This document shows positions 2,288 through 33,026 of a stretch of 64,000 bases of DNA, piece by piece. The notes beneath the pieces are model-generated. The model worked only from the letters and a program-made list of their open reading frames with translations. It had not been told where the DNA came from and made no database searches. Made by a program: the position numbers and the translations under genes. Position 1 is the first letter of the stretch; each line of letters opens with the position of its first letter. Origin of the DNA: Rhodanobacter sp. (GTDB lineage Bacteria; Pseudomonadota; Gammaproteobacteria; Xanthomonadales; Rhodanobacteraceae); assembly GCA_049794535.1 (NCBI GenBank), contig JBARCX010000199.1, positions 2,207 to 66,206 on the forward strand, read 5' to 3'.

Positions 2288-4327
2288 TCAGTGTTTCTCG
2301 TCGTTCCCGCGACTGGGCTGACTTTGCGTATGCGCGGGCGGGTGGCTATCGCCACGGGGCGCGGAGGGTTGTTGTTCGGTCCGGTAGGGGGCAGAGCGTT
2401 CGGTGGGCTGGTCGTACGACTGCGGCGTGGACTCTCGGTAGGCCTGCGCCGGTACGTTGTCGTGCATGCGGCGGGCGGCTTCGTAACGCTGCTGGTTTTG
2501 TTCGGTCTGTTGTTCGGCTTGTTGCCGTTCGGCCTGCAGGGCCTGTTCTTGTCGCGCCTGCTCCTGCTGGACTTGAGTGGGGCTGGCGCGCTCGAAACGT
2601 GGCACTTGCGGCAGGCCCGAAGTGGGGAGTTCGGCACGCGCGCGATCTTCGTCGGGGCTACTGATGAAGCTCACGCCAGGGCGTTGCGTGTTCTCAGGCG
2701 GTGCATGGCTAGCCGATGCCGGTTCGATGCCGCGTGAACCACTCGCTATGCCACCGTTTGCTGGCTGGGCTTGGTTGTTGAACGCCGAGGCCGAAGCCGG
2801 TGCTGGTGCTGCGTGGGTTGTCAGCACTCTTACCCGATTGGTAATGCTTGGCGGCGCAAGGCCTGCCGTGGGTGAGGCATGGCTGACGGTCGGCATTTGG
2901 CGTGCGAGTACTGGGCGCTGGAAACCACCCGTTGATAACGAGCCCGCCTGCACGCGCGGTTGCGCCAGGCTAGCTGCCGTGGGTGGCAGGTTGATACCGC
3001 GTGCTAGCACCACTGCCGTCGTGATCTGGTGCAGATCGACCTGCACCAGGTTGCGTTGCACCGTGCCGGCATTGGCGAAACTTTGCCCGGAGATGGCGGT
3101 GAAACCATGCGGCGCATTGCGATTGGCGTAGTTGGTATTCGGCACGGCTTGGCCGCTGCGGAAGGCCGTGTAGTGGCTATTGATACTGGCGAAAATCGCG
3201 CTGCGGTTGCCAGTGATATTGGTCAGGTTGATGCGGCTGTAATAGTTGCGGCTGGCGCGATACCACGGGTTATAGATCTCGCCGGGGCCGAGCGGAAACC
3301 AGCCCACGGGGCCCTTGCCGATGCCGACAAAGGCGACCAGCGCTGGCGCATACACAGGGCGTTGCCGGCGCGGCCCGGGAATCCAGCCCCAGGCACCGTG
3401 GATGAAGGCCCAGCGGCCATAGTGATAAGGCGCAAAGCCCCAGGGCAGATCATCGACCCAGGTCCAGCCCCAGGGTGAAATCCAGACCCAATGGCCAAAG
3501 CGGTAAGGGGCCCAGCCGACGGCAACGCCTACCGGGAACCACACGGCGCCGTAGTCGGGCTCGGTCTGCCAATCACCGTAGCTGTCCAGATCCTGGTAGC
3601 CGACTACGTCATCAGAAACGTATTGCGAGGCGGCGGATTGCGCATCGCCCTGATCGCGCTCACTGCACCATGCATCGAAGGCATCGCCGCTACCGATGTC
3701 AGTGATCATCAGATTGTCGAGCGTCGAATCGCCGAAGTCATAACTGCGGCCTGCCGTTACGTCACGATGGGCGTTGTTTTCGCCGTACACGGTGGCGTTG
3801 CCGTTGAACACCGTGACCTGAGTCGATTGGCCATCACCGCTGATGTCGACGCGAAATGTACCTGGCTGATCGACCACCAGAGCCAGGGTTGGCGTGTCGA
3901 TCTCGTAGCTCTGGCCCGGATCAAGCTGACGCACCGTCAAGTTGAGCGTGCCCTGGCTCAGTTCGATCTGCGCCAGTTGATCGCTCAGCGTAAGAAAGCC
4001 GAAGTCGGTGCCGCCGGCGAGGCGCAGTTCACTGCCACCTAGTTCAAGCTCGGCGCGACCATCAGCACCGGTGGACAGCCGGTCGCCCGTCGTTAGCGGT
4101 CGGTTGATGCTGGCCTCGCTCCACTCGGTCGCCCCGGCGGGCATGAGGCCCAGGTCGCCGTCCACATATGACAGCCGCGCCACGCGGCCGGGTGGATCAC
4201 CTGCGTCGTTGCCGGTAGGGGCGCTCTGGGCGTTCACCCAGCCTGATGTGGCACACAGGAACATCGCGACGACTACGCCTAACCAGCGATAACGCATGGA
4301 AGGCAGCAAACAGGCTAGCGCGCGCAT
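2288..4327 (-). CDS. secreted FecR-domain / DUF6600-like protein with a Q/E/P-rich C-terminal tail
   Basis: Signal peptide MRALACLL..GWVNAQS. FecR-like block GRVARLSYVDGDL..GDRLSTGADGRAELELGG. W/G/P-rich block WAPYRFGHWVWISPWGWTWVDDLPWGFAPYHYGRW. Low-complexity tail QQEQARQEQALQAERQQAEQQ. Confidence 0.6.
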   Translation of the reverse strand: MRALACLLPSMRYRWLGVVVAMFLCATSGWVNAQSAPTGNDAGDPPGRVARLSYVDGDLGLMPAGATEWSEASINRPLTTGDRLSTGADGRAELELGGSELRLAGGTDFGFLTLSDQLAQIELSQGTLNLTVRQLDPGQSYEIDTPTLALVVDQPGTFRVDISGDGQSTQVTVFNGNATVYGENNAHRDVTAGRSYDFGDSTLDNLMITDIGSGDAFDAWCSERDQGDAQSAASQYVSDDVVGYQDLDSYGDWQTEPDYGAVWFPVGVAVGWAPYRFGHWVWISPWGWTWVDDLPWGFAPYHYGRWAFIHGAWGWIPGPRRQRPVYAPALVAFVGIGKGPVGWFPLGPGEIYNPWYRASRNYYSRINLTNITGNRSAIFASINSHYTAFRSGQAVPNTNYANRNAPHGFTAISGQSFANAGTVQRNLVQVDLHQITTAVVLARGINLPPTAASLAQPRVQAGSLSTGGFQRPVLARQMPTVSHASPTAGLAPPSITNRVRVLTTHAAPAPASASAFNNQAQPANGGIASGSRGIEPASASHAPPENTQRPGVSFISSPDEDRARAELPTSGLPQVPRFERASPTQVQQEQARQEQALQAERQQAEQQTEQNQQRYEAARRMHDNVPAQAYRESTPQSYDQPTERSAPYRTEQQPSAPRGDSHPPAHTQSQPSRGNDEKH

Positions 4328-4534
4328 GATGTTCTCCATGAGAGGGTGCCGCACACTCTTCGGTCCGGAAACGGTTTACCCCGATGCCGGATGACGATGG
4401 AAGCATTATCACTGTGGCGTCATTCAGCCACTATGTGTCCGAGACGAGAGTGTGGTGTCGATTCAGCTGGCTTGCGCCGTACCAAGCTAAGGATTCCAAA
4501 AGCCGCCGATCCCGGGTTACCATCCGCCGGCACT

Positions 4535-4608
4535 GCGGGTGTAGCTCAATGGTAGAGCTGTAGCTTCCCAAGCTACTGACGAGGGTTCGATTCCCTTCAC
4601 CCGCTCCA
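4535..4608 (+). tRNA. tRNA-Gly (anticodon CCC)
   Basis: Cloverleaf readable by eye: acceptor GCGGGTG/CACCCGC, D arm GCTC-AATGGTA-GAGC, anticodon arm GTAGC-TTCCCAA-GCTAC, T arm GAGGG-TTCGATT-CCCTT, and an encoded CCA. Confidence 0.93.
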
Positions 4609-4695
4609 GCTCAAGCGACCCACGGCGAAGCGGTTGGCTTGAATCGCTTTGGTGTTACCTAAGTGGCTATGGCAGCCATGGGTAGGAGGCGGGCG

Positions 4696-5160
4696 ATGGC
4701 AACCACGGATATCGATCTTTATCGTTCGGTCATGGGTGGCGACTTTAAGAGCATCAAGGCCCGTGTTTATCCCGGTGATGGCGTGCTCTACCCTCGTTGG
4801 GAGTCGACCCAACATTTCAGCAAGAAGCTCGGCAGGATGGTGACCAGCCAAGCCGATGTCACCGTTGTGGTCGGCGATGGTGGCCCGGAAGTGCTACCCG
4901 AGGGCGGCACCTCGCTGCACGACGTTTCCGGCTGGTTCCCCTCGAAGGAATTTTTTATCCCGCAGGGAACCGAATACTCGGATGAAATAAGTATTCGCAA
5001 GGATTCCAAGCAGAAGACCAGCCCATACAACCCCCTACTCAAGGGCTATCACTACCAGCTTGAACCGCGCACACGGATGACCGTTTTGGCATTCAAGGGC
5101 GCGCTGGACAACATGGCGCGGGCCGCGGTTGCGAGGCAGTGTGAGCTGGCCAAGGGCTGA
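4696..5160 (+). CDS. Tse2-like (ADP-ribosyltransferase-fold) toxin candidate
   Basis: 154 aa from MATTDIDLYRSV, with an AGGAGG RBS at 4684..4689. Blocks LYRSV, GGTSLHD, FFIPQGTE, GYHYQL and C-terminal LDNMARAAVARQCELAKG match my recollection of P. aeruginosa Tse2 (158 aa). Local GC is lower. Not verified by search. Confidence 0.55.
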   Translation: MATTDIDLYRSVMGGDFKSIKARVYPGDGVLYPRWESTQHFSKKLGRMVTSQADVTVVVGDGGPEVLPEGGTSLHDVSGWFPSKEFFIPQGTEYSDEISIRKDSKQKTSPYNPLLKGYHYQLEPRTRMTVLAFKGALDNMARAAVARQCELAKG

Positions 5161-5194
5161 GTCGGCGGTACTCCATCCTCGGCGGAAGAGCCTT

Positions 5195-5477
5195 AGAGCC
5201 TGTTTGATATCTCTGAGTAGCCCGCGTTGCTCTTGAGTGGCCTTCAGGCGGTAGTGCGTGGCGCAGCGTCTGACTGGCCGTCAGATCAAGCGGGGCGCTG
5301 CCGCCTGAAGGCCACTCAGGAGCAACCCCATCCTTAATAAATGCAGGGGCCGGATCTGTTTGCACCCAGTCCTGCGTCATCATTCGGTCGTGTACCGACG
5401 TACACTCCCTCATTCTTCCTTGGCCTGCGTGCAAACAGCTTCCGGCGCGGGCCACTCAGAGATATCAAACAGGCTCT
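5195..5477. repeat. nested inverted-repeat element (MITE-like or structured RNA) between the toxin and immunity ORFs
   Basis: Outer arms 5195..5226 and 5446..5477 are reverse complements (32 bp, 1 mismatch; the outer 24 bp are perfect). Inner arms 5227..5251 and 5301..5325 are reverse complements (25 bp, 1 mismatch). Confidence 0.75.
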
Positions 5478-5480
5478 GAT

Positions 5481-5702
5481 ATGCCAGAAATCAGTAACCA
5501 GACACTCGTCATCGCGATCCAGGCGGTTGCATCGGAAATCCGTGCGCTGCGCGAGGCCGTGGCCAGTGGTGAGGCCGAAGTCGAAGAGTATCAATTACTC
5601 GACGATCGTCTTCGAGCGGCGGAGGATCTTGAGCGCGCCTATGAGATTGCCGCGCGGACGGTGATCAATCTGCCGCCCTACGACGAACTGATTGCGGGTT
5701 GA
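5481..5702 (+). CDS. Tsi2-like acidic helical immunity protein candidate
   Basis: 73 aa, net charge about -9, predicted all-helical. QTLVIAIQAVASEIRAL and LPPYDELI resemble my recollection of Tsi2 (77 aa). Positioned downstream of the toxin candidate. Confidence 0.5.
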   Translation: MPEISNQTLVIAIQAVASEIRALREAVASGEAEVEEYQLLDDRLRAAEDLERAYEIAARTVINLPPYDELIAG

Positions 5703-6052
5703 GTTCGCCGCCATCTTGCAGATTCGGGAGGCGCCCGCCTGAACTTGGATGCTCGCGTGAGGGGTGGATCATGCGCACCGTGCGTTCGGTTTCAGTCGTT
5801 GGGGAAGTTTTCCATGAATAAATAACGCGTCGCTAAAGCAGCCGGGGCGGGGAGTTTGGCTGCTTGTTGAGTTCAACTGCCCACGCCACTACGCTAGCGA
5901 TGTTCCAGTTATCGATGAAGATATCGTTTCATCCTCTCCCGTTGCCGCGAATGCTAAATGCATCAGTGGTTTGTGGTGGCGGTTTGGACGGTTCACTTCA
6001 GCCGACCCAGTCCCTCGATCCCCGTTCGAGCTCCCTCTACTCCGATTAGCGT

Positions 6053-6514
6053 GTGCTGATGACTGCAGACGTGATTACCCTCGGTTGGCGGGAGCGGGCA
6101 GCGTTGCCGCAGCTCGGCATCAACCAGCTCAAGGTCAAGCTCGATACCGGCGCACGTTCCAGTGCGCTGCACGTCGACACGCTTGAAACTTTTGTGCGTG
6201 ACAATGCTACCTGGCTGCGTTTCAGCATCGGCCTCAGCCGTCGCGTGCAGCACAGCGTGCAATGTGAGGCCCCCGCGCTGGATCAGCGCGTGGTGGTGGA
6301 TACGGGTGGCCGGCGTAGCGAGCGTTGGTTCATCCGCAGCGAGGTGTTGCTGGCCGGGCAATGTTTTGTCGCCGAGATCAGTCTGACCGATCGCCGGCAT
6401 ATGCTGTTTCCCATGTTGCTGGGCCGTACCGCGCTGATCGGGCGTATTCGGGTCGACCCGGCACTTTCTTATACCCAGCCACGACTCGTGGCTGCGACTC
6501 CGGACGTTCCATGA
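6053..6514 (+). CDS. retropepsin-like aspartic protease associated with RimK (RimB / ATP-dependent zinc protease family)
   Basis: About 150 aa with the motif [12 protein letters not shown]. Its stop overlaps the rimK start (ATGA at 6511..6514), the conserved pairing seen with rimK. Confidence 0.7.
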
Positions 6515-7413
6515 AAATAGCCATCCTGTCGCGCAACACGCGGTTGTATTCGACCCAGCGGCTGGTCGAAGTGGCGCGTGAGCGCGGCCATGTGGTGCGT
6601 GTGCTCGATCCGCTGCGCTGCTATGTGCGCATTGCACCGGGCGAAGTGGAAATCCGTTACAAGGGCAAGGCATTGCGCGATATCGACGCGGTGATCCCGC
6701 GTATCGGTACGCAAAGTACGTTCTACGGTACGGCGGTATTGCGCCAGTTGGAGATGATGGGCGTGTACACGCCTAATCCCTCCGACGCGGTACTGCGTGC
6801 GCGCGACAAGCTGCGTTGCTTGCAGATCCTCTCCGCGCAGGGGCTGGACATGCCGGTGACCGTATTCGGTGACAACCCGGACGACACCGCCGATGTGCTG
6901 ACTATGCTCGGCGACCCGCCACACGTGATCAAGCTCAACGAAGGCAGCCAGGGCACCGGCGTGGTTCTCGCCGAGAAGCGCAGCGCTTCGCAGAGCGTGG
7001 TCGAGGCATTCCGTGGCCTGTACGCGAATTTCCTGGTGCAGGAGTTCATCGCCGAATCCAAGGGCTGCGACCTGCGCTGCTTCGTGGTGGGCGGCAAGGT
7101 GGTTGCGGCCATGCAGCGCGAGGCTAGTCCTGGGGAGTTTCGCGCCAACCTACATCGCGGTGGCACGGCTTCGGCAGCCGTGCTGAGCGCGGCGGAGAAG
7201 CGCATCGCGGTGCGCGCTGCCGGCGCGTTGGGGCTTGGTATTGCCGGTGTGGATCTACTGCGTTCCAACCGCGGTCCGCTCGTGCTCGAGGTGAATGCTT
7301 CGCCCGGGCTGGAGGGTATTGAGGCCGCCACGGGCGTCAATGTTTCCGGCTGCATCATTCAGCATTTGGAGCGGCAGGTTACTAAAGTGAACGCTGCCAA
7401 TCCGCGGGTGTAG
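6511..7413 (+). CDS. rimK: ribosomal protein S6--L-glutamate ligase (ATP-grasp)
   Basis: MKIAILSRN.. start, with an ATP-grasp body ([55 protein letters not shown]). Confidence 0.9.
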
Positions 7414-7548
7414 TGATTAACCCTAGCGTGGGTACGGGTTAACTACGGCGTAACCACGGCGGCCCTATAAAGGTCCCACTGTTTTTTGCTCGGCACTTCA
7501 ACCGCAAGGTCCGGTGACAGCAGACGACGGTATCGGGGCAGTAGCTTC

Positions 7549-7589
7549 AGCCCGGGCTGGCGACGGCGAGTCGACTGTCCGGGCTTTTT
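7549..7589 (+). terminator. candidate intrinsic terminator after rimK
   Basis: agcccgg ... ccgggct stem followed by TTTTT. Confidence 0.45.
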
Positions 7590-7710
7590 CTTGGGCGGCT
7601 CAAAAAAGGCCTCTCATACACGTTCAGAATTCCACTTAACATTTGCCATGCTCAGTCGTTAAGCTTGAGCTTCCGCCGGCCATGCGCCGGCATGCGTAGC
7701 GGAGAAACGC

Positions 7711-8397
7711 ATGCGCGTTCTGGTGATTGAAGACAACAGCGATATCGCGACCAACATCGGCGACTATCTGGAAGATCGTGGCCACGTGGTGGATTTCGCC
7801 GGCGATGGGGTCACTGGCCTGCATTTGGCAGTGGTGCACGATTTTGATGTGATCGTGCTCGACTTGACCTTGCCTGGCATGGATGGTTTGGACGTAGCGC
7901 GCAAGCTGCGGCATGAGGCGCACAAGCAAACGCCGGTGCTGATGCTTACCGCGCGCGACGCCTTGGAGCAGAAGCTGACCGGCTTCGAATCCGGTGCCGA
8001 CGACTACATGACCAAGCCGTTTGCCTTGCAGGAGTTGGCAGCGCGTTTGGAAGTGCTGGCACGTCGCGGCAAGGGCCCGCAAAGCCGAGTGCTGAAAGTG
8101 GCCGACCTCACCTACAACCTCGACACGCTCACGGTGAACCGTGAGGGCAAGTCGATCCAGCTCAACCCGATCGGGCTCAAGCTGCTGCAGGCCTTGATGG
8201 AGGCCAGCCCGTCGGTGGTCACGCGACAGGATCTGGAGCAGAAGGTGTGGGGTGAGGAGTTGCCTGACAGCGATTCGCTGCGCGTGCACATTCACGGTCT
8301 GCGTGCAGCTATCGACAAGCCGTTCGAAAAGCCGCTGATCCACACGCGGCACGGCATTGGTTACCGCATGGTCGATCCGGATGCAATCCAGGCGTAA
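7711..8397 (+). CDS. OmpR/PhoB-family response regulator
   Basis: Receiver domain (VLVIEDN, DVIVLDLTLPGMDG, TARD, KPF) plus a winged-helix C-terminal domain (RVHIHGLRAAID..IHTRHGIGYRM). Confidence 0.9.
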   Translation: MRVLVIEDNSDIATNIGDYLEDRGHVVDFAGDGVTGLHLAVVHDFDVIVLDLTLPGMDGLDVARKLRHEAHKQTPVLMLTARDALEQKLTGFESGADDYMTKPFALQELAARLEVLARRGKGPQSRVLKVADLTYNLDTLTVNREGKSIQLNPIGLKLLQALMEASPSVVTRQDLEQKVWGEELPDSDSLRVHIHGLRAAIDKPFEKPLIHTRHGIGYRMVDPDAIQA

Positions 8398-9661
8398 GCT
8401 TCGTTTCCGCCTGATTGTCTCGTTCGCGCTGTTCGGTTTCGGACTGAGTGCGCTGTTTGCGACGGCGACGATGTACGTGCGCGCCAAGGTCGAAAATCAA
8501 CTTGTCGTGTCCTCTTTGCAGCAGGACGCGGACAGCTACGCACAACAGATCATCGATTCGCCCGGCAAGCCTTACCTGGGGCTCGTGCAGGCATGGGCAT
8601 TCCGCGACCGTACGCTTTATAAAGCGCCGATCGCATGGCAGAGCCTTTCGACCGGTGTCTATGATCGTCAAGGTACGGCTGATGATGGTTTAGCTCGCCA
8701 TTACAAGCTCGCGGTCAGCCGGAAAGACGGAGTGATCGTGTTCCTGACTTATGACGTCAGTCGCGATGATCTAGGTAAGCGCCAGTTGATCACCGGGCTG
8801 GTTGCAGCGGTCGTGTTATTCAGCTTGTTATCGCTAGCGATTGGTTTATGGCTCTCGCGAAAAGTACTCAAGCCAGTCAGTGAATTGGCACGACGGCTGC
8901 GCGATTTTCGCAAAGCCGGTAAAGCTGAGCCGCTGGCTGTGCATTTTGCTGACGACGAGGTGGGTGAATTGGCGTTGGCATTGGATGAGTATTCCTCGCG
9001 TCTTACTGCAATGGTGGAGCGTGATCGGGAGTTCAATTCTGACGTTAGTCACGAGCTGCGCACGCCGCTAGCGGTGATCGCCAGCACTACCGAATTGCTG
9101 CAAGGCTCGCCGGATCTCACGGACAAGTTGCGTGAGCGGCTGAAGCGTATCGAGCGTGCGTCGCGCCAAGCCACCGAAATGATCGAGGCGTTGCTGCTGT
9201 TGTCGCGTGCCGAGCGTCGTGGTCCGACGCGTGGCGAGACCACCGACGTGGCGAAGGTCGCCGCTGATGTGATCGAAAGTCAGCGTCCACAGATGCGCGA
9301 TAAACCGATCACGATTGATCTGGCGGTGAAGGAGTTGATCACCGTCAACGCACCGGCCTCGGTGCTCTCCGTCGCGCTCACCAACCTGATCGGCAACGCG
9401 ATTAAATACACCATGCAGGGCGAGGTGCGTGTGGAAGTCGGGCAGGGTCGCATCGAGGTGATCGACACCGGTCCTGGTATCAAGCCGGAAGATGCCGAGC
9501 GTCTATTCCAGCGTGGCGTGCGAGGCGAAGGTGCGGGTGGCAGTGGTGCCGGCCTGGGTCTGGCGATCGTGCGTCGGTTGTGTGACTTGTACGGCTGGGA
9601 TGTTTCGATGCGTCCGCGTAGTGATACCAACGGCGCGATCGCGAGCATCGTGTTCCGTTGA
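8381..9661 (+). CDS. sensor histidine kinase (HAMP-HisKA-HATPase)
   Basis: Two TM segments, H-box SDVSHELRTPLA, N-box LTNLIGNAIKYT, G-boxes DTGPGI and GSGAGLGLAIV. Start at MQSRRKL overlaps the regulator's 3' end. Confidence 0.85.
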   Translation: MQSRRKLRFRLIVSFALFGFGLSALFATATMYVRAKVENQLVVSSLQQDADSYAQQIIDSPGKPYLGLVQAWAFRDRTLYKAPIAWQSLSTGVYDRQGTADDGLARHYKLAVSRKDGVIVFLTYDVSRDDLGKRQLITGLVAAVVLFSLLSLAIGLWLSRKVLKPVSELARRLRDFRKAGKAEPLAVHFADDEVGELALALDEYSSRLTAMVERDREFNSDVSHELRTPLAVIASTTELLQGSPDLTDKLRERLKRIERASRQATEMIEALLLLSRAERRGPTRGETTDVAKVAADVIESQRPQMRDKPITIDLAVKELITVNAPASVLSVALTNLIGNAIKYTMQGEVRVEVGQGRIEVIDTGPGIKPEDAERLFQRGVRGEGAGGSGAGLGLAIVRRLCDLYGWDVSMRPRSDTNGAIASIVFR

Positions 9662-9676
9662 GTAGTCGATCACTCG

Positions 9677-9707
9677 CCCTCGTGTCGCAGTTGCGATGAG
9701 GGTTTTC
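9677..9707 (+). terminator. candidate intrinsic terminator after the kinase gene
   Basis: ccctcgt ... atgaggg stem followed by TTTTCT. Confidence 0.4.
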
Positions 9708-9835
9708 TCCGAAGTCATAAACCTATCCGCTCAATGGTCGGCGTTGGGCTTGCGCGCTTGTGGCTGCACGCGTGTGCGTCGTGCATCGGTTATTCGGGAT
9801 CATGGAGTGATCCAGCGTCACCATTCGATATCGGC

Positions 9836-9866
9836 AAAATAAAAGGCGGGCCCCGAAGGGCCCGCC
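9836..9866 (-). terminator. intrinsic terminator of TonB-dependent receptor 1
   Basis: Perfect 9-bp GC stem ggcgggccc/gggcccgcc with a cgaa loop. A U-run follows on the minus strand (A-run 9836..9844 on plus). Confidence 0.8.
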
Positions 9867-9892
9867 TGTCAGAAAGTCCGGCTCGGCTGAGC

Positions 9893-12775
<2,883 letters not shown>

Positions 12776-13046
12776 TGTTTGAATAACTCCGAACAAAATG
12801 GCCCGCGTCAGCCTTGGCTGCACGTTGGACGTCTTGAATTGGTGCGCCCGCCCTGGGGGATGGGTTTGCGCTCGTGGGCATCGCCGGACTTGGGGGACGT
12901 GACGATGTGATTACGAAGTTAAGGCAAGAACCTACGAAAAAGCAACCTACGCTAAACGCATGTATTTGCGTATTGAACTTTCAAGGTGCGCCGCAGCAAA
13001 TTTTAAGTACATGTTACTTATGAGTTAAATGTGATATCGCAGAAAG

Positions 13047-16202: not shown

Positions 16203-16997
16203 ATGCGCGCTTACCTCAACCTACTTCGCCATGTGCTGGATCACGGCACCGAAAAAACCGATCGCACCGGCACCGGCACACGTAGCGTGTTTGGTTGGCA
16301 GATGCGTTTCGATCTCAACGAAGGCTTCCCGCTAGTCACCACCAAGAAGCTGCATGTGAAGTCGATCGTGCATGAGCTGATCTGGTTCCTGCAGGGCGAC
16401 ACCAATATCGCTTATCTCAAGGAACATGGTGTTCGCATCTGGGACGAATGGGCCGATCCGAATGGCGACTTGGGCCCGGTCTACGGTGAGCAGTGGCGTG
16501 CATGGCCTACGGCGGATGGCGGCACGGTCGACCAGATTCGCTGGGTGGTGGATGAGATCAAGCGCAACCCCGATTCACGCAGACTGATTGTCAGCGCATG
16601 GAACGTGGGCGAGCTATCGAAGATGGCGCTGATGCCCTGCCACTCGCTGTTCCAGTTCTATGTAGCGGACGGCAAGCTCAGCTGCCAGCTGTACCAGCGC
16701 TCCGGCGATATCTTTCTCGGCGTGCCATTCAACATCGCCAGCTACGCACTGCTCACTCATATGGTGGCGCAGGTGTGCGGGCTGGGCGTGGGCGATTTCG
16801 TGCATACGCTGGGTGACGCACATCTGTACAACAACCACGTTGAACAGGCACGCCTGCAATTGACGCGTGAGCCGCGGCCGATGCCGCGACTCACGTTGAA
16901 TCCCAACGTGCATGCGTTGGAAGATTTCCGCTTCGACGACATCGCTATCGTCGACTACGCGCCGCATCCGTCGATCAAGGCGCCGGTGGCGGTGTAG
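16203..16997 (+). CDS. thyA: thymidylate synthase
   Basis: 264 aa: [26 protein letters not shown].., active-site region [14 protein letters not shown]-terminal ..PSIKAPVAV. Confidence 0.95.
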
Positions 16998-17982
16998 CTG
17001 CAACGCAACCGCGCACGCAGCTGAAATAGGCGGTGCTGTGCGGGTAGTCGAGCGTCATCACAAAGTGGTCGAACACGTTGGCGCCTACGGCGCCTTCCAC
17101 GCGCTTGTCCATCATGCTGGACATGAAATCGTGGAAGTTGGGATCAGGTCGTTCGGTGAACCAAACGGGGCCGACTGACCAGCCGGCGATCTCTACCTTT
17201 GGAACCTCGATCAGTCGTGCCATGAATCGCGGCGCAGCTATATCGTCGCCTTGCTCGACGACACGCCAGTCGGGATGAGCCTTGTGCCAGCGCTCCAATA
17301 CGCTGGTGGTGATGTAACTGGTCGCGCCAGTGCCAGCGACGGTTGGTGTGCCGGAGGCTTTTGCGCCCGCGATAGTCGGATGAGCAGTAGCTCCTGTATC
17401 TAGCAACATATCCAGCGCTTGGCCGTCCACGCGGATAGTAATGCGCGGGAAAGCGCCTTCCAGTTGTCCTTGCTTGTTACGCGGAAAACCGAGTGTGGAG
17501 GAGTGTGCGGCCGGGTCGGCGTGCCAGGATGCGGCTTCCAGCACGAGTTGCTGGCCTGGGTAATTGAAGGTCCATACGCGTCCAGACAGGTAGTCGGCGC
17601 CAAGCTGCCCCGTATTGCCGACGGCTTTGCTGTTGATCAGTAGCGCCTCGCCGCATGGTCCTGGTAAGGGGGCTGGCAGTCCCTTGCCGGGTTTGTATTT
17701 GGGTAGGCTGCCTACGGGCATGTCGTTGCCATCCATTTTGCAGGTGCTGGTTTTCAGGTGCAGTTGTTGCGCCAACGTGCCGCTTACCCAATACATACCG
17801 CCGTCCCCACCGCCGCCTGTATCCACGAGAAGTCGCAGGATGTTGCCATCTGTTGTTTCCGGTACGGCGTAAAAATGCCCCGCCTCAAACCGGGTCGGCA
17901 GCACCTGTGCCGTAGTTGGCGCGTTTGTTACAGGGCTAGCAGCCAGTGCTGCTGCAACGGCAAAGCTCATTACGATCATCAT
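16975..17982 (-). CDS. secreted two-lobed retropepsin/pepsin-like aspartic protease candidate
   Basis: Signal peptide [17 protein letters not shown]. Two hydrophobic-D-T-G motifs (LLVDTGGGG near aa 53, MLLDTGATA near aa 195). The 3' end overlaps the thyA 3' end by 23 nt (convergent). Confidence 0.5.
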
Positions 17983-22275: not shown

Positions 22276-25197
22276 TTACTTGGTATTGCTGAACTTGTAG
22301 GTCGCTTCGAGGAAGAAGCCACGACCGTTGACGTCATAGTTCAACGCGTTGAACGGCTGGCCTTCCGTACCCGGATAACTACGGTCGAGCGGCGGCATCT
22401 TGTTGAAGACGTTGTTGATTTCCAACGAGAGCGCCAGGTTCTTGATTGGGCTATAGCTGACGCTAAGGTTGTAGCGAATCCACGGGCCCAGCTTGCCCGT
22501 ACCCGGTGCGTAGTAGTTGTTGGCGACGGTAGCCAGATAGTTCGGCGAAGAGCCATCACGAAGACCGTAGACCGTCACACCCCAAGCTTGCGTCGGTGAG
22601 AGCCAACCGACCGAACCATCGACCCTGCTCTTGAACTCCGTGCTGTAGTACGGTTCGCGGAGCAAATTGATGAAGGGATCGCCTGGCAGTAGCTGCTGAG
22701 TGTGCTTCAGGATGTCACTCCAGGACGACGCCACCTTGATGGTGCCGTAGTCACCGATACCGTGGGTGTAGTCCACCTGGGTCAGAACGGAGTTCAGATT
22801 CTCACGCGCTACGTTGACCTTCGGTGTGAGGATCTCGGTAATCGGGGCCAGCAGGCCTGGCGCCAACGGAGTGCCCGAACGAATCACCTGAGCCAATGCG
22901 GCCTGGCAGCTCGGCGAGTTGATATCGAAGATGCCCAAACGGCAGTTCGCTTCGGTCTGGGCGAGGAAGTCGGAACTCTGCACCTCAACTTCGTTAGCGA
23001 TGTTGTAGTGGTAGAAATCCGACTTCAAGCTGAAGCCTTCGAACGGTGATATCACGAAGCCGTAGCTAAACACCTTGGCGGTGATCGGCTGCAGCTTTGT
23101 GTTACCCGACTGTTGGCCAAAGAACTGTTCGCCGCTCAGCTGTCCCGGGCAGTTGGCAATATTGCCACCGGTGTAGCCGAGCTTTGCGCAGTTGTAATAA
23201 TCGACCACGCTGCTGTAGTAGCCGCTCGGACCCTGAAACTCATCGGGCAATGTCGGAGCCTTGAAAGCCGTGCCGTACGAACCACGCAGCAACAGAATGT
23301 CGCTAAACGGACGGAATTCGAAACCGAGATTGTAGGTCGGATGGCTCACGGTGCCGTTAGCGACGTTATAACTGTCGTAACGGCCGGACGCGTCCAGCGT
23401 TAGCATCGAGAACAGAGGTGCGTTGAACTCGAGCGTGCCTGCATAGCGCGAGCGGTGGCCTGCGCCTGATACGTCGGTAAAGTCGTAGGTATCGCCGTCG
23501 AGCGTGCGTGGGTCAGGGGAATAGTTCCAGCCTTGGTTACCGCCCTCGAACACCGCTGCCATGCCGGCGTCGCCACCGGGTAGAGAGAATAGTGACGCAT
23601 CGGTGACCTGACCGCGGAGCATGTTGTCCCAGGTCTTGGCGTACGTCTCGGTGTAGCCAGTAAATCCGCGGAACGCTGCATTCGAAACAGGTGTGTAGAA
23701 AGCTGAGTAGTTCGGCTCGTAGGTGTTAACGCCTTGACCATTCGGGTCGGGTCCCAAGCTCGGACCAAGTATGTTGTCGAAATAATTATTGATCTGGGTG
23801 GTCCAGCGCTGGAAGGTGCGCTCCTGTAGGTGATCTTCGGAATGGTTGAAGGTCAGGTCATAGTCCCAGTTCGATTGACCGAAGCTACCCTTCACGCCGA
23901 GTGCCAGCATGAACGAGTTTTCGACGTTGTTATTCATAATGTTCTGGTAACCGCCAGCCTCTTCCGGGCTAAACGCATGCTGCGCAAGCACGTAGTCACC
24001 CGCACCCCCGTTGAGGCGAGGATCGTAGTAAATGGGGCTATCCCAGAACAGGAACTGGGATCCTGACGAGTATTTTTGTTGATCGTAGTTGTAGAGGAAG
24101 TTGCCGTAAAACTGCACATCTTCGTTCAGATCATACGTGGCATGAGTGTAAATGTTCGCCGAATTTTCCTTGTTGGTTTCGGTGACATAACCCGCACTGT
24201 TTTGCGAACCGCAATATTGGCCGTGATTCGCGCGCGTCTGAAGCTGCTCGGTACCGTTGTACTCACCAGTAACGGCTCCGCATCCGATACCCGGATTCAA
24301 CACGTTCGGGCTGTAGTACGCGTTCTCCAATTGTGTTTCGCTTAGCACCAGGTAGTCGCGCGACGCTGTGGCGGGCGTGGTGCCCTGCGTGAAGTAGTGA
24401 CTGGTCAAGCTGCGATCAAAGCCCCAGATCGGTTCAATACTCTCGACCTGGATGCCCGCAATAACGTTGAGCTTGCCGAAGGTGAAACCATCGGCCGCGT
24501 AGACGCGCCGATCGGCACCGCCGCCGCCCGTGCGCCAGCCCAAGCGCGCATCGACGACAGGAGCATCAATGGTTTTCTTCAGCACGATGTTGATAACGCC
24601 CGCGATGGCATCCGAACCATAAAGCGATGATTGACCGCCCGGCAGAATATCGATGTGATCGACCATCTCGATCGGAATGCTGGTCAGGCTATTGAACGCT
24701 TCGCTGCCGTTATATAGCGCAGGGAAATCACCCATCGGCAGGCCATCGATCAGGTACTTGGTGTAGCTGGGATCGAGGCCAAAGAAGCTGAGTGTTTTCG
24801 CACTCTGGGTGAAACCACCCGAGTTATTCGAGCCCTGCACGCTGCCGGTTGCAAATGTACCCGCCTGGAGCGCATCGGCAACGGTGGAAAAGCCGCGATC
24901 CTTCAGCTGCTGAGCCGTGATCGTGATCACCGGCTTGCTCGTTTCAACCTGCACCTGCGGAATTAGCGAACCGGTCACCATGACCGCTGAGAGTTTCTTG
25001 GCTTTGTCAGCTGTTGCGCTGGTGGATTGATCAGAACTTGTCGACTGTGTGGTGTCCTGCGACGGGTTCTGTGGGGCAGTTCCTTGTGTCGATGAGCCCT
25101 GACTGGACACAGTCGGAGTGGTATCGGCATTGACGTTGGCAACAAATACGAGTGATAGCGCAGCCAGAACGGCCGTGGCGATTGGTTTTTTCAGCAT
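22276..25197 (-). CDS. TonB-dependent receptor (about 973 aa), paralog A
   Basis: Signal peptide MLKKPIATAVLAALSLVFVANVNA. KKLSAVMVTGSLIP plug region, YGSDAIAGVINIV, C-terminal barrel strand ..EATYKF followed by SNTK. Confidence 0.9.
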   Translation of the reverse strand: MLKKPIATAVLAALSLVFVANVNADTTPTVSSQGSSTQGTAPQNPSQDTTQSTSSDQSTSATADKAKKLSAVMVTGSLIPQVQVETSKPVITITAQQLKDRGFSTVADALQAGTFATGSVQGSNNSGGFTQSAKTLSFFGLDPSYTKYLIDGLPMGDFPALYNGSEAFNSLTSIPIEMVDHIDILPGGQSSLYGSDAIAGVINIVLKKTIDAPVVDARLGWRTGGGGADRRVYAADGFTFGKLNVIAGIQVESIEPIWGFDRSLTSHYFTQGTTPATASRDYLVLSETQLENAYYSPNVLNPGIGCGAVTGEYNGTEQLQTRANHGQYCGSQNSAGYVTETNKENSANIYTHATYDLNEDVQFYGNFLYNYDQQKYSSGSQFLFWDSPIYYDPRLNGGAGDYVLAQHAFSPEEAGGYQNIMNNNVENSFMLALGVKGSFGQSNWDYDLTFNHSEDHLQERTFQRWTTQINNYFDNILGPSLGPDPNGQGVNTYEPNYSAFYTPVSNAAFRGFTGYTETYAKTWDNMLRGQVTDASLFSLPGGDAGMAAVFEGGNQGWNYSPDPRTLDGDTYDFTDVSGAGHRSRYAGTLEFNAPLFSMLTLDASGRYDSYNVANGTVSHPTYNLGFEFRPFSDILLLRGSYGTAFKAPTLPDEFQGPSGYYSSVVDYYNCAKLGYTGGNIANCPGQLSGEQFFGQQSGNTKLQPITAKVFSYGFVISPFEGFSLKSDFYHYNIANEVEVQSSDFLAQTEANCRLGIFDINSPSCQAALAQVIRSGTPLAPGLLAPITEILTPKVNVARENLNSVLTQVDYTHGIGDYGTIKVASSWSDILKHTQQLLPGDPFINLLREPYYSTEFKSRVDGSVGWLSPTQAWGVTVYGLRDGSSPNYLATVANNYYAPGTGKLGPWIRYNLSVSYSPIKNLALSLEINNVFNKMPPLDRSYPGTEGQPFNALNYDVNGRGFFLEATYKFSNTK

Positions 25198-25378
25198 GAG
25201 AGGCTCCCTCGGCCTGATTCGTAGCAAATTGTTTTAACAACTTATTTTGGTAAGGGGAGCCTGGAATTCGGCACAAAAACCCCTGATCCACCGCCCAGGA
25301 CGGTAGATAGGAAGGTCGATTTGGTACTCCCCTGCCCTCGCAGACCTGACTTTTTTCTCAAAACGTCAGGTTTAATTA
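25198..25378 (-). promoter_or_regulatory. candidate structured 5' leader of TBDR paralog A (SD-mimic / anti-SD / SD)
   Basis: On the minus-strand RNA, AGGGGAG (plus 25323..25333) and the SD GGGAGCC (plus 25202..25210) are both complementary to GGCUCCCCU (plus 25252..25261). A 5' hairpin ACCUGAC/GUCAGGU and an internal G-rich arm plus U-run are also present. Confidence 0.45.
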
Positions 25379-28708: not shown

Positions 28709-28883
28709 CGGAGGCCCCCTTGGCCTTTGTTCGAAAAGATGTTGCAAGGGGAGCCAATAACTGGACGCAAAAATACCCCAATCCGCCGTTCTGATAACGG
28801 CAGTGAATATATTGGGTCGAGCTGGTATTCCCCTACCGTTCGCGAATTGGTTGTCTCTTTTGAAAAACACCATATCCGCGTTA
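28709..28883 (-). promoter_or_regulatory. candidate structured 5' leader of TBDR paralog B (SD-mimic / anti-SD / SD)
   Basis: Minus-strand RNA: AGGGGAAUACC (plus 28824..28834), GGCUCCCCUUG (plus 28745..28755) and SD AAGGGGGCC (plus 28713..28721). Also an internal hairpin ACCCAAU..[GCCGUU-AUCAG-AACGGC]..AUUGGGGU followed by AUUUUUG. Confidence 0.45.
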
Positions 28884-28889
28884 AAACTA

Positions 28890-28918
28890 TATTTACTCAA
28901 GATGAAACTTTTGTGCAA
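28890..28918 (-). promoter_or_regulatory. sigma70-type promoter of TBDR paralog B
   Basis: The minus strand reads TTGCAC-17 nt-TAAATA. An imperfect inverted repeat GAAAGT-N12-AGTTTC spans the -35. Confidence 0.55.
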
Positions 28919-31584: not shown

Positions 31585-32073
31585 TCAATCGATTCTACGG
31601 ATCTCAGTGCCGGCAGCCAGGTCGTGTACAGCGCGATGGCGCGGGTCGAATAGTGCTGGCGACAACCATAACGCCCAGCCGATCATCACGGCCCACAATG
31701 CACCATGTTGGCCGACGAAGGGTGCCAGTTCCAGCAGCACTAGTGGTACTGCGGCAACCAATAAGCGCACTAGTGCTTGTTGCAGTGTCAGGCGAGCACC
31801 GTCGCGCGCTGTGATGCGAATGCGCCAGGGGCGCATCCCTAGCGTTTGTCCGCCACGTAACCAAGAAGTTATGAAATAAGCTGCTACTACTAACCCCTGC
31901 ACTGGCTGATACCACCAGGCGATGTGTATTTGTGCGCCGGTAGCGATCAGTTGCCCGTGCGTAGCCATCTGGCAAAGCAGGCCGACCACCATCACGATCG
32001 CCACCACGGCAAGTAGGTCGTAGACCATGGCAAGCAGGCGACGCCATAGCGGGCAATAGGTAGTTGCAGTCAT
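31585..32073 (-). CDS. RDD family membrane protein
   Basis: CPLWRRLLAMVYDLLAVVAI.. N-terminus and three TM segments. Start chosen at MTATTY. Confidence 0.6.
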   Translation of the reverse strand: MTATTYCPLWRRLLAMVYDLLAVVAIVMVVGLLCQMATHGQLIATGAQIHIAWWYQPVQGLVVAAYFITSWLRGGQTLGMRPWRIRITARDGARLTLQQALVRLLVAAVPLVLLELAPFVGQHGALWAVMIGWALWLSPALFDPRHRAVHDLAAGTEIRRID

Positions 32074-32099
32074 CGGTTCGCTTGCATGGTAGGCGCGCA

Positions 32100-33026
32100 A
32101 TGGCCAGCATCGCGTGCATGGAAGAGAACACAAGTATTACCGATGCCGACCAAGCCAGTATCGCCGCCTTCATCGAGCGGGTTTGGTCGGAAGATGGTTT
32201 GGCCGATCGCACGCTGGATGCCTATCGGCGTGACCTGGAAACACTGGCACGTTGGCTGGCCGCGCGTGGGCGCACGTTGCGTACGGCGCAGCGCGAAGAT
32301 CTATCGGCTTTTCATGGCAGCCAGCCTGTGGCAGTGCGCTCAATGGCGCGTCGGCAATCGGCGTTCCGGCGCTACTACGGTTTCATCGTGCGCAACGAAC
32401 CGGGCTTTGACGATCCCACCTTGCTCATTGAGCGCCCGCGCATGCCGCGCAGCCTGCCCAAAGCGTTAGCCGAACGCGAGATCGAGGGGCTGCTCAATGC
32501 GCCGGACACATCCACCACCCTGGGGTTGCGAGATCGAGCGATGCTGGAGCTGATGTACGCCTCGGGTCTGCGCGTGTCCGAATTGGTGGAGTTGCCATTG
32601 GCGGCATTGAATCCACGCCAGGGCGTATTACGTGTCACGGGCAAGGGGGGCAAGGATCGGCTGGTACCGGTTGGCGAGGTGGCGCTGGAACGTATCGAGG
32701 CGTATCTCGCCGGTGCGCGTCCGGTACTGGCGAAGGGGAGGCAACCCGCGGCGCTGTTCTTGAGCAAGCGCGGCGAGGGCATGACGCGGCAGATGTTCTG
32801 GACACTGGTGAAGCGCTACGCCCTGGTGATGGGCATCAACGCAAAACGCATCTCACCGCATGTGTTGCGACATTCCTTTGCCACACATCTGCTCAATCAT
32901 GGTGCTGACCTACGCGCGTTGCAGATGCTGCTGGGTCACAGTGCATTGAGTACGACTCAGATCTATACGTTGGTAGCGAAAGAGGGTCTCAAGCGTTTAC
33001 ACGCGCAGCATCATCCGCGCGGTTGA
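32100..33026 (+). CDS. xerD: site-specific tyrosine recombinase XerD
   Basis: FIERVWSEDGLADRTLDAYRRDL.. N-terminal domain. Catalytic region SPHVLRHSFATHLL..LLGHSALSTTQIYT. The xerD-dsbC synteny is conserved. Start is uncertain (32100 or 32118). Confidence 0.88.
   Translation: MASIACMEENTSITDADQASIAAFIERVWSEDGLADRTLDAYRRDLETLARWLAARGRTLRTAQREDLSAFHGSQPVAVRSMARRQSAFRRYYGFIVRNEPGFDDPTLLIERPRMPRSLPKALAEREIEGLLNAPDTSTTLGLRDRAMLELMYASGLRVSELVELPLAALNPRQGVLRVTGKGGKDRLVPVGEVALERIEAYLAGARPVLAKGRQPAALFLSKRGEGMTRQMFWTLVKRYALVMGINAKRISPHVLRHSFATHLLNHGADLRALQMLLGHSALSTTQIYTLVAKEGLKRLHAQHHPRG

Follow-up and report, generated by a model that had tools for sequence, protein, structure and literature searches.

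We examined an open reading frame (ORF) pair resembling the Tse2 toxin and its Tsi2 immunity protein in a window of 64,000 nucleotides (the whole stretch of DNA that was analysed) from a metagenome-assembled genome of Rhodanobacter sp. Our favoured explanation, which we hold to be likely, is a genuine Tse2/Tsi2-family toxin–immunity pair on a small islet that lacks an integrase and is inserted at the 3′ end of tRNA-Gly(CCC). The features of the locus are as follows.

4535..4608, + strand: tRNA-Gly(CCC), the integration target (ARAGORN; Rfam tRNA, 72 bits)
4609..6009, no strand assigned: 1.4-kb islet between the tRNA-Gly 3′ end and rimB (occupied versus empty sites)
4684..4689, + strand: Shine-Dalgarno sequence AGGAGG, 6 nt 5′ of the tse2 ATG (read from the sequence)
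4696..5160, + strand: tse2-like toxin gene, 154 aa (Pfam PF18648, PDB 5AKO_C, AF2 fold)
5184..5190, + strand: GGAAGAG, ancestral tsi2 ribosome-binding site (aligned tse2-tsi2 spacers)
5195..5477, no strand assigned: 283-bp nested palindrome, MITE-like (inverted-repeat pairs I1-I3)
5481..5702, + strand: tsi2-like immunity gene, 73 aa, net charge about -9 (NF052667, PF21643, AF2 fold)
5862..5905, + strand: conserved non-coding block at the distal islet end (all 5 occupied islets)
5989..6009, + strand: degenerate direct repeat of the tRNA 3′ end, attR-like, CGGTTCACTTCAGCCGACCCA (16/21 bases match)
6059..6514, + strand: rimB-like gene, then rimK; conserved right flank of the site (synteny with locus L001)

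The initial annotation, made from the sequence alone, had placed the cassette at 4535-5870, directly 3′ of a tRNA-Gly(CCC) gene, with a ribosome-binding site and a 154-aa ORF about 90 nt past the tRNA. ARAGORN and Rfam both placed the tRNA gene at 4535-4608; AGGAGG was present at 4684-4689, and the ORF ran from the ATG at 4696 to 5160, 88 nt past the tRNA. By hmmscan, one of the checks that the annotation had proposed, the 154-aa protein scored 51 bits against Pfam PF18648 (ADPRTs_Tse2), above the curated cut-off of 26.6 (E 3.1e-13). It matched PDB 5AKO_C with an E-value of 8.5e-8 as a single sequence and 2.3e-12 with a profile of 30 relatives. Its AlphaFold2 (AF2) model had a pLDDT of 93.8, and Foldseek, the second proposed check, returned the Tse2 chain 5AKO_C as the sole significant match in the PDB (E 2.4e-8, probability 1.00, TM 0.72/0.73). 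Residues 1-153 were aligned with PA2702 by hhalign at a probability of 98.4%. The sequence taken for PA2702 (P. aeruginosa Tse2) in this comparison has an N-terminal numbering that fits the K33, E40, A42 and R14 of a preprint, and its residues 63-157 were identical to 5AKO_C in the phmmer alignment. The Pfam family, the 5AKO_C alignment and the predicted fold agree on the Tse2-like identity proposed by the annotation, and by these measures ORF 4696-5160 is a Tse2-family toxin. An exact-protein look-up of the window toxin, P0001 and P0016 returned no record.

The putative pocket of the toxin consists of R10, T72, S73 and H119, corresponding to R14, T79/S80 and H122 of Tse2. The T72/S73 and H119 correspondences come from the phmmer alignment to 5AKO_C; the N-terminal 77 aa gave no phmmer match in the PDB, so the equivalence of R10 and R14 comes from the hhalign comparison with the sequence taken for PA2702. 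T72, S73 and H119 were invariant, and R10 nearly so, among the 30 relatives. Residues R14, T79, S80 and H122 were named as the Tse2 pocket in a preprint (bioRxiv 10.64898/2026.06.15.732508), and the T79A/S80A substitution abolishes toxicity (PMC3325213). By these alignments, the toxin keeps the residues proposed for the Tse2 catalytic pocket. The invariant residues of its clade include G71-T72-S73-L74-H75-D76, W80, F81, P89, G91, T92, H119, N139, R142 and Q148. A C-terminal helix was predicted at residues 130-153 in the AF2 model, and aligns to R133-R156 of Tse2 as the most conserved block.

Similarly, the second ORF, described in the annotation as strongly acidic, contained 15 D/E, 6 R and no K when counted from the translation. 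Hmmscan placed the 73-aa protein above cut-off for both the NCBIfam equivalog NF052667 (Tsi2_fam; 95 bits, cut-off 70, E 2.7e-27) and Pfam PF21643 (39 bits, cut-off 27), and it matched the PDB Tsi2 chains at E ~6e-7. The AF2 model (pLDDT 93.1) predicted a hairpin of two helices with a further short helix at the C-terminus. The top ten Foldseek matches were all Tsi2 chains (TM 0.76-0.88, RMSD 1.3-3.4 Å, 39-42% identity), with a TM of 0.85-0.88 and an RMSD of 1.3 Å to 5AKO_A/B. On the strength of the equivalog match and this predicted fold, ORF 5481-5702 is a Tsi2-family immunity protein, as had been proposed. The motif blocks from which both assignments had started also aligned: GGTS, HY and LDN..R.A..RQ.E.A to 5AKO_C, LYRSV to LYRAV, and QTL.IAIQ.VA and LPPYD.LI to Tsi2, matches far past chance (Pfam E 3e-13 for the toxin, NCBIfam E 2.7e-27 for the immunity protein). 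The sole significant Pfam match of the 73-aa protein was Tsi2-like, and Pfam accordingly assigned it no DNA-binding domain (HTH, RHH or AbrB).

In P. aeruginosa, Tsi2 residues E38 and D45 are required for Tse2 binding (PMC3325213). They aligned to Y37 and L44 here, in a register fixed by the conserved QLL and AA.DL motifs next to them, with the acidic residues E35, E36, D41 and D42 nearby. The toxin–immunity interface is therefore not conserved in detail; from the alignment it has diverged and is probably pair-specific, and family membership by profile or fold is unaffected.

Because high GC yields spurious ORFs, and 42 ORFs of at least 40 aa overlap positions 3000-8000, we considered whether the two ORFs are chance open frames in GC-rich DNA that encode no protein. 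Set against this are the HMM E-values of 3e-13 (toxin) and 2.7e-27 (immunity), 204 toxin and 139 immunity homologues, confident fold predictions and a dN/dS of about 0.1, and we rejected the explanation as having practically no chance of being right. The dN/dS was 0.07-0.12 for tse2 and 0.09-0.14 for tsi2; the combined range of 0.07-0.14 lies below that of the neighbouring rimB (0.19-0.33). Both genes are under strong purifying selection, and both ORFs are intact, with every invariant residue of their clades.

To define the islet boundaries, we collected 80 related loci with the RimB-like protein as query and compared occupied with empty sites at 72 Rhodanobacteraceae loci. The site between tRNA-Gly(CCC) and rimB was empty in 67 of the 72 species, and in these 67 the same tRNA lies 27-125 nt 5′ of rimB. 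Three species carry tse2-tsi2, with tse2 frameshifted in one; one has a tse2 stump with an intact tsi2, and one an unrelated insert. The islet begins directly at the tRNA 3′ end, at position 4609, and the sequence past 6009 (GTCCCTCGATCCCCG...) is similar to the post-tRNA sequence of empty sites (for example L046, CTCCCCGATCCCCGAGC). The attR-like repeat at 5989..6009 shares 16 of 21 bases with the last 21 nt of the tRNA, a score that only 10 of 500 shuffled sequences attained. In L001 and L077 the same tRNA carries other inserts, and in L077 a clear attR (25/27) lies beside the different insert; Pfam assigned the flanking genes of L001 as RimB-like and RimK. The tse2-tsi2 pair is thus an insertion relative to most relatives, and comparative genomics upholds the tRNA-hotspot reading of the initial annotation.

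Two other statements about the islet fared less well. It had been called a lower-GC islet. The GC content was 57.4% for tse2, 58.6% for tsi2 and 57.8% for the whole islet, against a window mean of 59.8 ± 2.4%, about the 18th percentile among same-size tiles of the window, so the composition is not distinctive and we discarded low GC as a sign of foreign origin. It had also been stated that the window contains no integrase. No integrase was found inside the islet (4609..6009), but a tyrosine recombinase is encoded at 32064-33026, adjoining dsbC and 26 kb from the islet; it looks like a housekeeping XerD and not an island integrase. Cassette and flanking rimB have similar dS values (0.8-1.9 and 0.8-1.3, respectively), which gives no indication of recent transfer.

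At the distal end of the islet, the non-coding block at 5862..5905 was present in all five occupied islets (the window, L001, L013, L033 and L047) and absent from every one of the 67 empty sites. It contains TTGAGT (5867-5872), a 17-nt spacer and TACGCT (5890-5895), and overlaps the palindrome CGCTAGCG. From its sequence the block resembles a promoter facing rimB-rimK. Its -10 element is weak, for which reason a consensus promoter scan missed the block; across 4400-6200 the scan returned no consensus promoters or terminators, so we only infer the transcription of tse2, tsi2 and rimB.

Between the two genes lies a 283-bp nested palindrome, a feature absent from the initial annotation. Its 32-nt terminal inverted repeats are 97% complementary, its inner hairpins span 5226-5326 and 5356-5438, and its arms overall are 91-97% complementary; as RNA it folds at -190.9 kcal/mol (z = -14.65). 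The 3′ end lies 3 nt ahead of the tsi2 ATG. All other loci have a purine-rich Shine-Dalgarno sequence (GAAGAG, AGGAG, GGAGG or GAGGAA) 5-9 nt ahead of the tsi2 start, whereas GGAAGAG is now 290 nt 5′ of the start codon, displaced by the insertion. Because of this 283-bp insertion the tse2-tsi2 spacer is 320 nt, versus 12-45 nt in relatives, and none of the other tse2-tsi2 spacers that were read contains the palindrome. Judged from these spacers, the palindromic insertion is specific to the source genome and separates tsi2 from its ancestral ribosome-binding site. It probably alters the coupling of toxin and immunity expression, and could possibly act as a regulatory switch in front of tsi2 that sets the toxin:immunity ratio.

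A second copy of the palindrome was found neither in the window nor in 86 loci or plasmids. In JGI metagenomes the sole match was the unrelated L087, sharing a 21- to 22-mer, and phages gave only a 41-nt chance match in a capsid gene. Rfam returned only sub-threshold miRNA-hairpin noise. The ends of the palindrome seem unlike the consensus forms of integron attC or REP/ERIC-type repeats; together with its single copy, this led us to set both identities aside as improbable.

The insertion raises the prospect that the cassette is silenced or decaying, its genes uncoupled such that the source genome has no functional effector–immunity expression. The palindrome sits 3 nt from the tsi2 ATG with the ancestral Shine-Dalgarno sequence removed, a read-through transcript would lock the region 5′ of the ATG in a 32-bp stem, the scan of 4400-6200 was empty of consensus promoters and terminators, and toxins have decayed at the same site in relatives (the L033 frameshift and the L083 stump). 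Yet both ORFs are intact and keep all clade-invariant residues, the insertion is probably recent, as its arms are still 91-97% complementary, and, were the toxin produced, an intact tse2 beside a non-functional immunity gene would kill the cell. We regard silencing or decay as improbable.

Under the favoured explanation, and by analogy with P. aeruginosa Tse2/Tsi2, the toxin would be an ADP-ribosyltransferase-fold enzyme that arrests growth in the cytoplasm via a conserved target, and the acidic helical Tsi2-like protein would bind it 1:1 and occlude the active site, protecting the producer and its kin. ADP-ribosyltransferase activity and target are unproven even for the founding Tse2 (PMC12133291). 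Since the toxin would act in the producer's own cytoplasm, the pair would also behave like an addiction module. We lean, slightly, towards the toxin being a small cargo of the Hcp ring lumen fired by a T6SS encoded elsewhere, as in the case of PA2702. The initial annotation had noted the lack of T6SS context. A Pfam scan of 40 further ORFs in the 64-kb window indeed found no T6SS families, and no T6SS genes lay within 10 kb of the pair in nine contexts (L001-L006, L088, L090 and L091). Such a lack is nothing unusual: the founding PA2702/PA2703 is likewise unlinked, being an Hcp1 cargo encoded away from the H1 cluster (PMC12133291). T6SSs occur in Rhodanobacteraceae, in Dyella spp. (PMC6653060) and in Rhodanobacter Root179 (impH-2; PMC10719396). 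Tse2 contacts Hcp1 mainly through its C-terminal helix R133-R156 (bioRxiv 10.64898/2026.06.15.732508); the size of the toxin, a single domain of 154 aa, and its predicted helix at 130-153 fit with Hcp loading and do not prove it.

Homologues of the pair provide further context. Soil metagenomes are rich in relatives of 60-86% identity. The family is small: clustering at 50% identity gives 126 clusters in a set of 1.84 billion representatives. Nearly all members are stand-alone proteins of 145-165 aa, and no Tse2 domain was fused to a PAAR, VgrG, Hcp or Rhs carrier among longer family members; one 181-aa member is a toxin–immunity fusion or an artefact. The cassette was found at no fewer than six different genomic sites among housekeeping genes. 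L090 has a second tsi2-like gene in tandem, and L091 two tse2-tsi2 pairs adjoining a Tox-REase-7 fragment. With tse2 frameshifted in L033 and reduced to a stump in L083, and tsi2 intact in both, immunity genes outlive decayed toxins at these loci. The novelty claimed for the pair was overstated, since NCBI already names its relatives Tse2 family; the pair itself is genuine but an unremarkable member of that family.

In weighing an interbacterial role, we counted in its favour the C-terminal helix, the stand-alone size, the tandem tsi2 of L090, the tandem pairs of L091, the immunity genes outliving toxins (L083 and L033) and the T6SSs of Rhodanobacteraceae. Counted against our best explanation were the lack of T6SS genes in the window and the nine contexts, the lack of carrier fusions, the replacement of E38/D45, the unproven activity and target of the founding Tse2, and a palindrome that might impair tsi2 translation. 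Impaired translation would be hard to square with an active toxin unless tsi2 is expressed in another way.

The same observations bear on a secretion-independent chromosomal toxin-antitoxin or addiction module, in which the Tse2-fold toxin is never exported and the pair persists since loss of tsi2 is lethal, or through stress or phage defence. The cassette is always a bare two-gene unit, at its six or more sites and with no T6SS gene within 10 kb; no family member has a T6SS carrier fusion, and loss of the toxin with retention of immunity matches the prediction of such a module. Moreover, tsi2 cannot be lost while tse2 is active in P. aeruginosa (PMC3325213), so addiction behaviour is intrinsic to the pair. 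However, Tsi2 lacks a DNA-binding domain, the toxin gene precedes the immunity gene, and P. aeruginosa Tsi2 is more stable than Tse2, the reverse of the situation in type II antitoxins (PMC3325213). Extra immunity genes in tandem, and tandem pairs by a polymorphic-toxin fragment, are typical of interbacterial conflict loci; a PADLOC search for defence systems gave no match, and the founding Tse2 is likewise encoded apart from its T6SS (PMC12133291). We consider this module unlikely, though worth keeping in mind, and give still less weight to the broader proposal that the well-conserved soil-bacterial Tse2-like clade, always seen as bare pairs of 154-158 aa plus 73 aa with neither linkage nor fusion to secretion components, may work T6SS-free as a self-contained addiction or defence module.

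Tse2 was discovered 15 years ago, and its target and chemistry have yet to be established (PMC12133291). A divergent, conserved clade narrows the functional core of Tse2 through its invariant residues, and a compact, highly conserved and easily modelled homologue could help find its target. The tRNA-Gly/rimB hotspot is a natural experiment, with intact pairs, a frameshifted toxin and a toxin stump, the latter two with intact immunity. If the T6SS-free reading were true, P. aeruginosa would have recruited a TA-type toxin, the Tse2 fold, as Hcp cargo.

Of the known systems, MITEs have terminal inverted repeats, small size, no ORF, a target-site duplication and multiple copies per genome. The 283-bp element, like MITEs such as Correia-type elements, is small, has terminal inverted repeats and lacks coding capacity, but a clear target-site duplication could not be delimited, and the searches turned up no second copy. 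With tRNA-linked islets the locus shares insertion at the tRNA 3′ end, a degenerate direct repeat and patchy occupancy, and it differs in having neither an integrase nor a GC deviation. Type II antitoxins have a DNA-binding domain, autoregulate their operon, are labile and are usually encoded first. Type II modules resemble the pair as small, mobile two-gene cassettes of patchy distribution and addiction potential, in which an acidic inhibitor binds the toxin directly; by contrast, the pair lacks a DNA-binding antitoxin domain and has the toxin gene first, extra immunity genes occur in some related loci, and the P. aeruginosa immunity homologue is more stable than its toxin (PMC3325213).

The closest characterised system is P. 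aeruginosa Tse2-Tsi2 (PA2702-PA2703; PDB 5AKO, 3RQ9 and 3VPV). The two share the order of toxin gene then immunity gene, similar sizes (154/73 aa here versus 158/77 aa), predicted folds (toxin TM 0.72, immunity protein TM 0.85-0.88), the putative R/T-S/H pocket, the C-terminal helix, an acidic helical immunity protein and a bicistron away from any T6SS cluster. They differ in sequence (the toxins are only ~28-32% identical and the immunity proteins ~40%, with E38 and D45 of Tsi2, critical for binding, being Y37 and L44 here), in host order (here Lysobacterales/Xanthomonadales), in the tRNA-linked islet and the bicistron split by the 283-bp palindrome, and in export, known via Hcp/T6SS for PA2702 and putative here. 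Proteins of the Rhodanobacter/Dyella/Massilia/Aliidongia clade (NCBI 'Tse2 family ADP-ribosyltransferase toxin') are 60-86% identical and likewise form stand-alone pairs of 153-158 aa plus 73 aa; only the window copy has the palindrome, the spacers of the others being 12-45 nt. The locus is a recognisable member of the annotated Tse2/Tsi2 family, and the palindrome is its one oddity.

The tRNA, the AGGAGG motif, the 154-aa ORF and the acidic 73-aa ORF were all found where the initial annotation, which had proposed an orphan Tse2/Tsi2 cassette, had placed them. The relevant features are:

4535-4608, tRNA-Gly(CCC), Rfam tRNA match
4684-4689, Shine-Dalgarno (SD) sequence AGGAGG, 6 nt ahead of the tse2 ATG at 4696
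4696-5160, tse2-like toxin ORF, 154 aa
5195-5477, 283-bp nested palindrome inside the tse2-tsi2 spacer, ending 3 nt before the tsi2 ATG
5481-5702, tsi2-like immunity ORF, 73 aa (15 D/E, 6 R, no K)
5862-5905, non-coding block of ~45 nt (related loci: L001 10755-10800, L013 1022-1070, L033 5751-5800, L047 5860-5905)
32064-33026, XerD-like tyrosine recombinase (Phage_integrase and SAM-like N domain), immediately 5' of a DsbC-like gene (33113-33916)

The 154-aa protein scored 51 bits with Pfam PF18648 (ADPRTs_Tse2), whose gathering score is 26.6, and matched the Tse2 chain of the Tse2-Tsi2 complex (PDB 5AKO) with an E-value of 8.5e-8; a profile made from 30 relatives lowered this to 2.3e-12. The same relatives served to build an AlphaFold2 model (pLDDT 93.8, pTM 0.87), whose sole significant Foldseek match in the PDB was 5AKO_C (E 2.4e-8, TM 0.72/0.73). 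The 73-aa protein scored above cut-off with the NCBIfam equivalog Tsi2_fam (95 bits vs 70) and Pfam PF21643 (39 bits vs 27), and matched four Tsi2 PDB sequences (E ~1e-6); its model (pLDDT 93.1) superposed on Tsi2 chains with a TM of up to 0.88 and an RMSD of 1.3 Å. Because profile and sequence matches agree with the predicted fold in each case, membership of the Tse2 and Tsi2 families, respectively, is established, as had been proposed.

The predicted catalytic pocket of Tse2 consists of R14, T79, S80 and H122 (2026 preprint 10.64898/2026.06.15.732508), and T79A/S80A is the classical allele without toxicity (PMC3325213). T72/S73 and H119 of the toxin line up with T79/S80 and H122 in the alignment to 5AKO_C. 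R10 lies opposite R14 in a profile comparison spanning residues 1-153 (probability 98.4%), for which a PA2702 (P. aeruginosa tse2) sequence not taken from a database was used; its residues 63-157 are identical to the PDB alignment, and its N-terminal numbering agrees with the residues cited in the preprint. Among the 30 relatives, T72, S73 and H119 are invariant, R10 is nearly so, and T72/S73 sit within a longer invariant core, GTSLHDV..WF. The C-terminal helix R133-R156, the main Hcp1 contact of Tse2 (same preprint), matches the best-conserved block and a helix predicted here for residues 130-153.

An identical toxin, annotated as a hypothetical protein, is on record from a Rhodanobacter sp. 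MAG. Homologues of the toxin (n=204) and the immunity protein (n=139), many of them 60-90% identical, came from metagenomes, Rhodanobacter, Dyella, Aliidongia, Massilia, Roseateles and Burkholderiales, and several already carry the name 'Tse2 family ADP-ribosyltransferase toxin'. The pair is a new member of a known, annotated family. The superfamily as a whole is small, with 126 clusters (50% identity) in a set of 1.84 billion representatives. Nearly all of its members consist of a single domain and measure 145-165 aa, and no T6SS carrier domain was found on the few longer ones.

To survey the insertion site, we fetched 80 Rhodanobacteraceae loci with the neighbouring RimB-like protein as probe; tRNA-Gly(CCC) lies upstream of rimB in 72. 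Sixty-seven of these sites are empty, with only 27-125 nt between the two genes. Three hold tse2-tsi2, in Dyella acidisoli 4MZ03 (L047) and two Dyella MAGs (L013 and L033); in L033 (4975-5686) tse2 is frameshifted, possibly by an assembly error in the MAG, and tsi2 is intact. Frateuria sp. GZRR35 (L083, 5535-5926) retains only the last ~20 tse2 codons (…ATLDNMAGAAIAKARRLA…) with an intact tsi2, and in another locus (L077, 2021-2950) the site is filled by an unrelated insert of ~0.95-1 kb, flanked by a 25/27 copy of the tRNA 3' end. The pair is also present at this site in another Rhodanobacter MAG (L001), with an extra ~0.9-kb insert adjoining the tRNA (9001-9895) that encodes an H-NS-like gene (PF00816) and is bounded by a CCCGCTCCA repeat. 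The L001 and L077 inserts show that tRNA-Gly(CCC) is a recurrent integration site. In the window, a degenerate 21-nt copy of the tRNA 3' end (16/21; score reached by 10/500 shuffles) occurs at 5989-6009, and the sequence 3' of 6009 is similar to that found 3' of the tRNA at empty sites; therefore, the islet spans 4609-6009. It lacks an integrase and is located at a genuine integration hotspot, as first suggested. Its lower GC, also noted at first, is no meaningful signal: the islet has 57.8% GC (tse2 57.4%, tsi2 58.6%) against 59.8% for the window, about the 18th percentile among same-sized window tiles.

The cassette is under purifying selection: tse2 has a dN/dS of 0.07-0.12 and tsi2 one of 0.09-0.14, both below that of rimB (0.19-0.33). 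Since its dS is similar to that of rimB, the cassette is old and no recent arrival.

The tse2-tsi2 spacer is 320 nt in the window; the spacers examined in other loci measure 12-45 nt and have a purine-rich SD 5-9 nt ahead of the tsi2 start. Terminal inverted repeats of 32 nt (97% complementary) bound the 283-bp element, and the arms of its two inner hairpins repeat segments of these ends; as RNA the element folds at -190.9 kcal/mol (z = -14.65). By its sequence it looks like a MITE, though it is single-copy (no second copy in the window, 86 loci, metagenomes, plasmids or phages) and no target-site duplication could be defined. The element has displaced the ancestral tsi2 SD, GGAAGAG (5184-5190), which is now 290 nt away. 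It may be asked whether this insertion is silencing the cassette; both ORFs are intact despite it, and we consider silencing improbable.

The block at 5862-5905, downstream of tsi2, comprises TTGAGT, a 17-nt spacer and TACGCT, overlaps the palindrome CGCTAGCG, and is conserved in 5/5 occupied islets and absent from the 67 empty sites. We read it as a putative islet-borne promoter that faces outward and re-drives rimB-rimK; a consensus promoter scan made no call on it. A short inverted repeat also lies just 5' of the tse2 RBS in each islet (window 4640-4690, L001 9950-9985, L047 5040-5075). Its sequence varies by islet (GGCTATGGCAGCCATGG, CCTGCGGGAGCTGCAGG, CACAGATTTGTGTG); a role as a conserved 5' hairpin or as an operator is possible.

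Forty further ORFs of the window were scanned against Pfam. No T6SS gene was detected among them, in line with the initial annotation, and the functions assigned were all housekeeping, including TonB-dependent receptors, PurL, SHMT, thymidylate synthase, DHFR, CstA and LolCE-like permeases. In nine other contexts, the surroundings of the pair out to 10 kb were likewise free of T6SS genes. A stand-alone context is normal for this family. The accompanying statement that the window has no integrase was right for the islet only: the recombinase at 32064-33026 is most likely a housekeeping XerD and not an island integrase. A stretch of 20 kb contains three large TonB-dependent receptor genes (9893-12823, 22276-25227 and 25823-28918, all - strand), whose first-position codon GC of 0.52-0.54 is unusually low relative to neighbouring genes. 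ORFs 50816-52375 (+, 519 aa), 37849-38643 (+, 264 aa) and 16975-17982 (-, 335 aa) had no Pfam match at E ≤ 1e-5; the last may be a spurious antisense frame.

By analogy with work in P. aeruginosa, the ART-fold toxin would arrest growth in the cytoplasm, the acidic Tsi2-like protein would neutralize it by 1:1 binding, and addiction behaviour would be inherent to the pair. A TA-like module independent of secretion is possible but less likely than export. Missing T6SS neighbours cannot separate this reading from export, because P. aeruginosa PA2702/PA2703 (tse2/tsi2) are likewise unlinked to the H1-T6SS, yet Tse2 is Hcp1 cargo (PMC12133291). In one related locus, two tandem tsi2-like genes come after tse2 (L090, 7363-8317), and another has two tandem tse2-tsi2 pairs near a Tox-REase-7 fragment (L091, 1111-3926), which are hallmarks of interbacterial toxin-immunity loci. 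Together with the survival of tsi2 after toxin decay in L083 and L033, they lean towards interbacterial use. T6SSs are present in Rhodanobacteraceae, in Dyella spp. (PMC6653060) and Rhodanobacter Root179 (impH-2; PMC10719396). Our best guess, held with modest confidence, is that the toxin is exported as Hcp-lumen cargo of an unlinked T6SS.

Three things lend the locus some interest: the comparative series that the tRNA hotspot provides, the unusual palindrome inserted ahead of tsi2, and the opportunity to find out whether Tse2-type toxins depend on a T6SS. The Rhodanobacter pair differs from the Pseudomonas pair in the immunity protein: E38 and D45 of Tsi2, both essential for Tse2 binding (PMC3325213), are replaced by Y37 and L44 in the alignment. 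These substitutions point to a diverged toxin-immunity interface, and the two pairs would be unlikely to confer cross-immunity.
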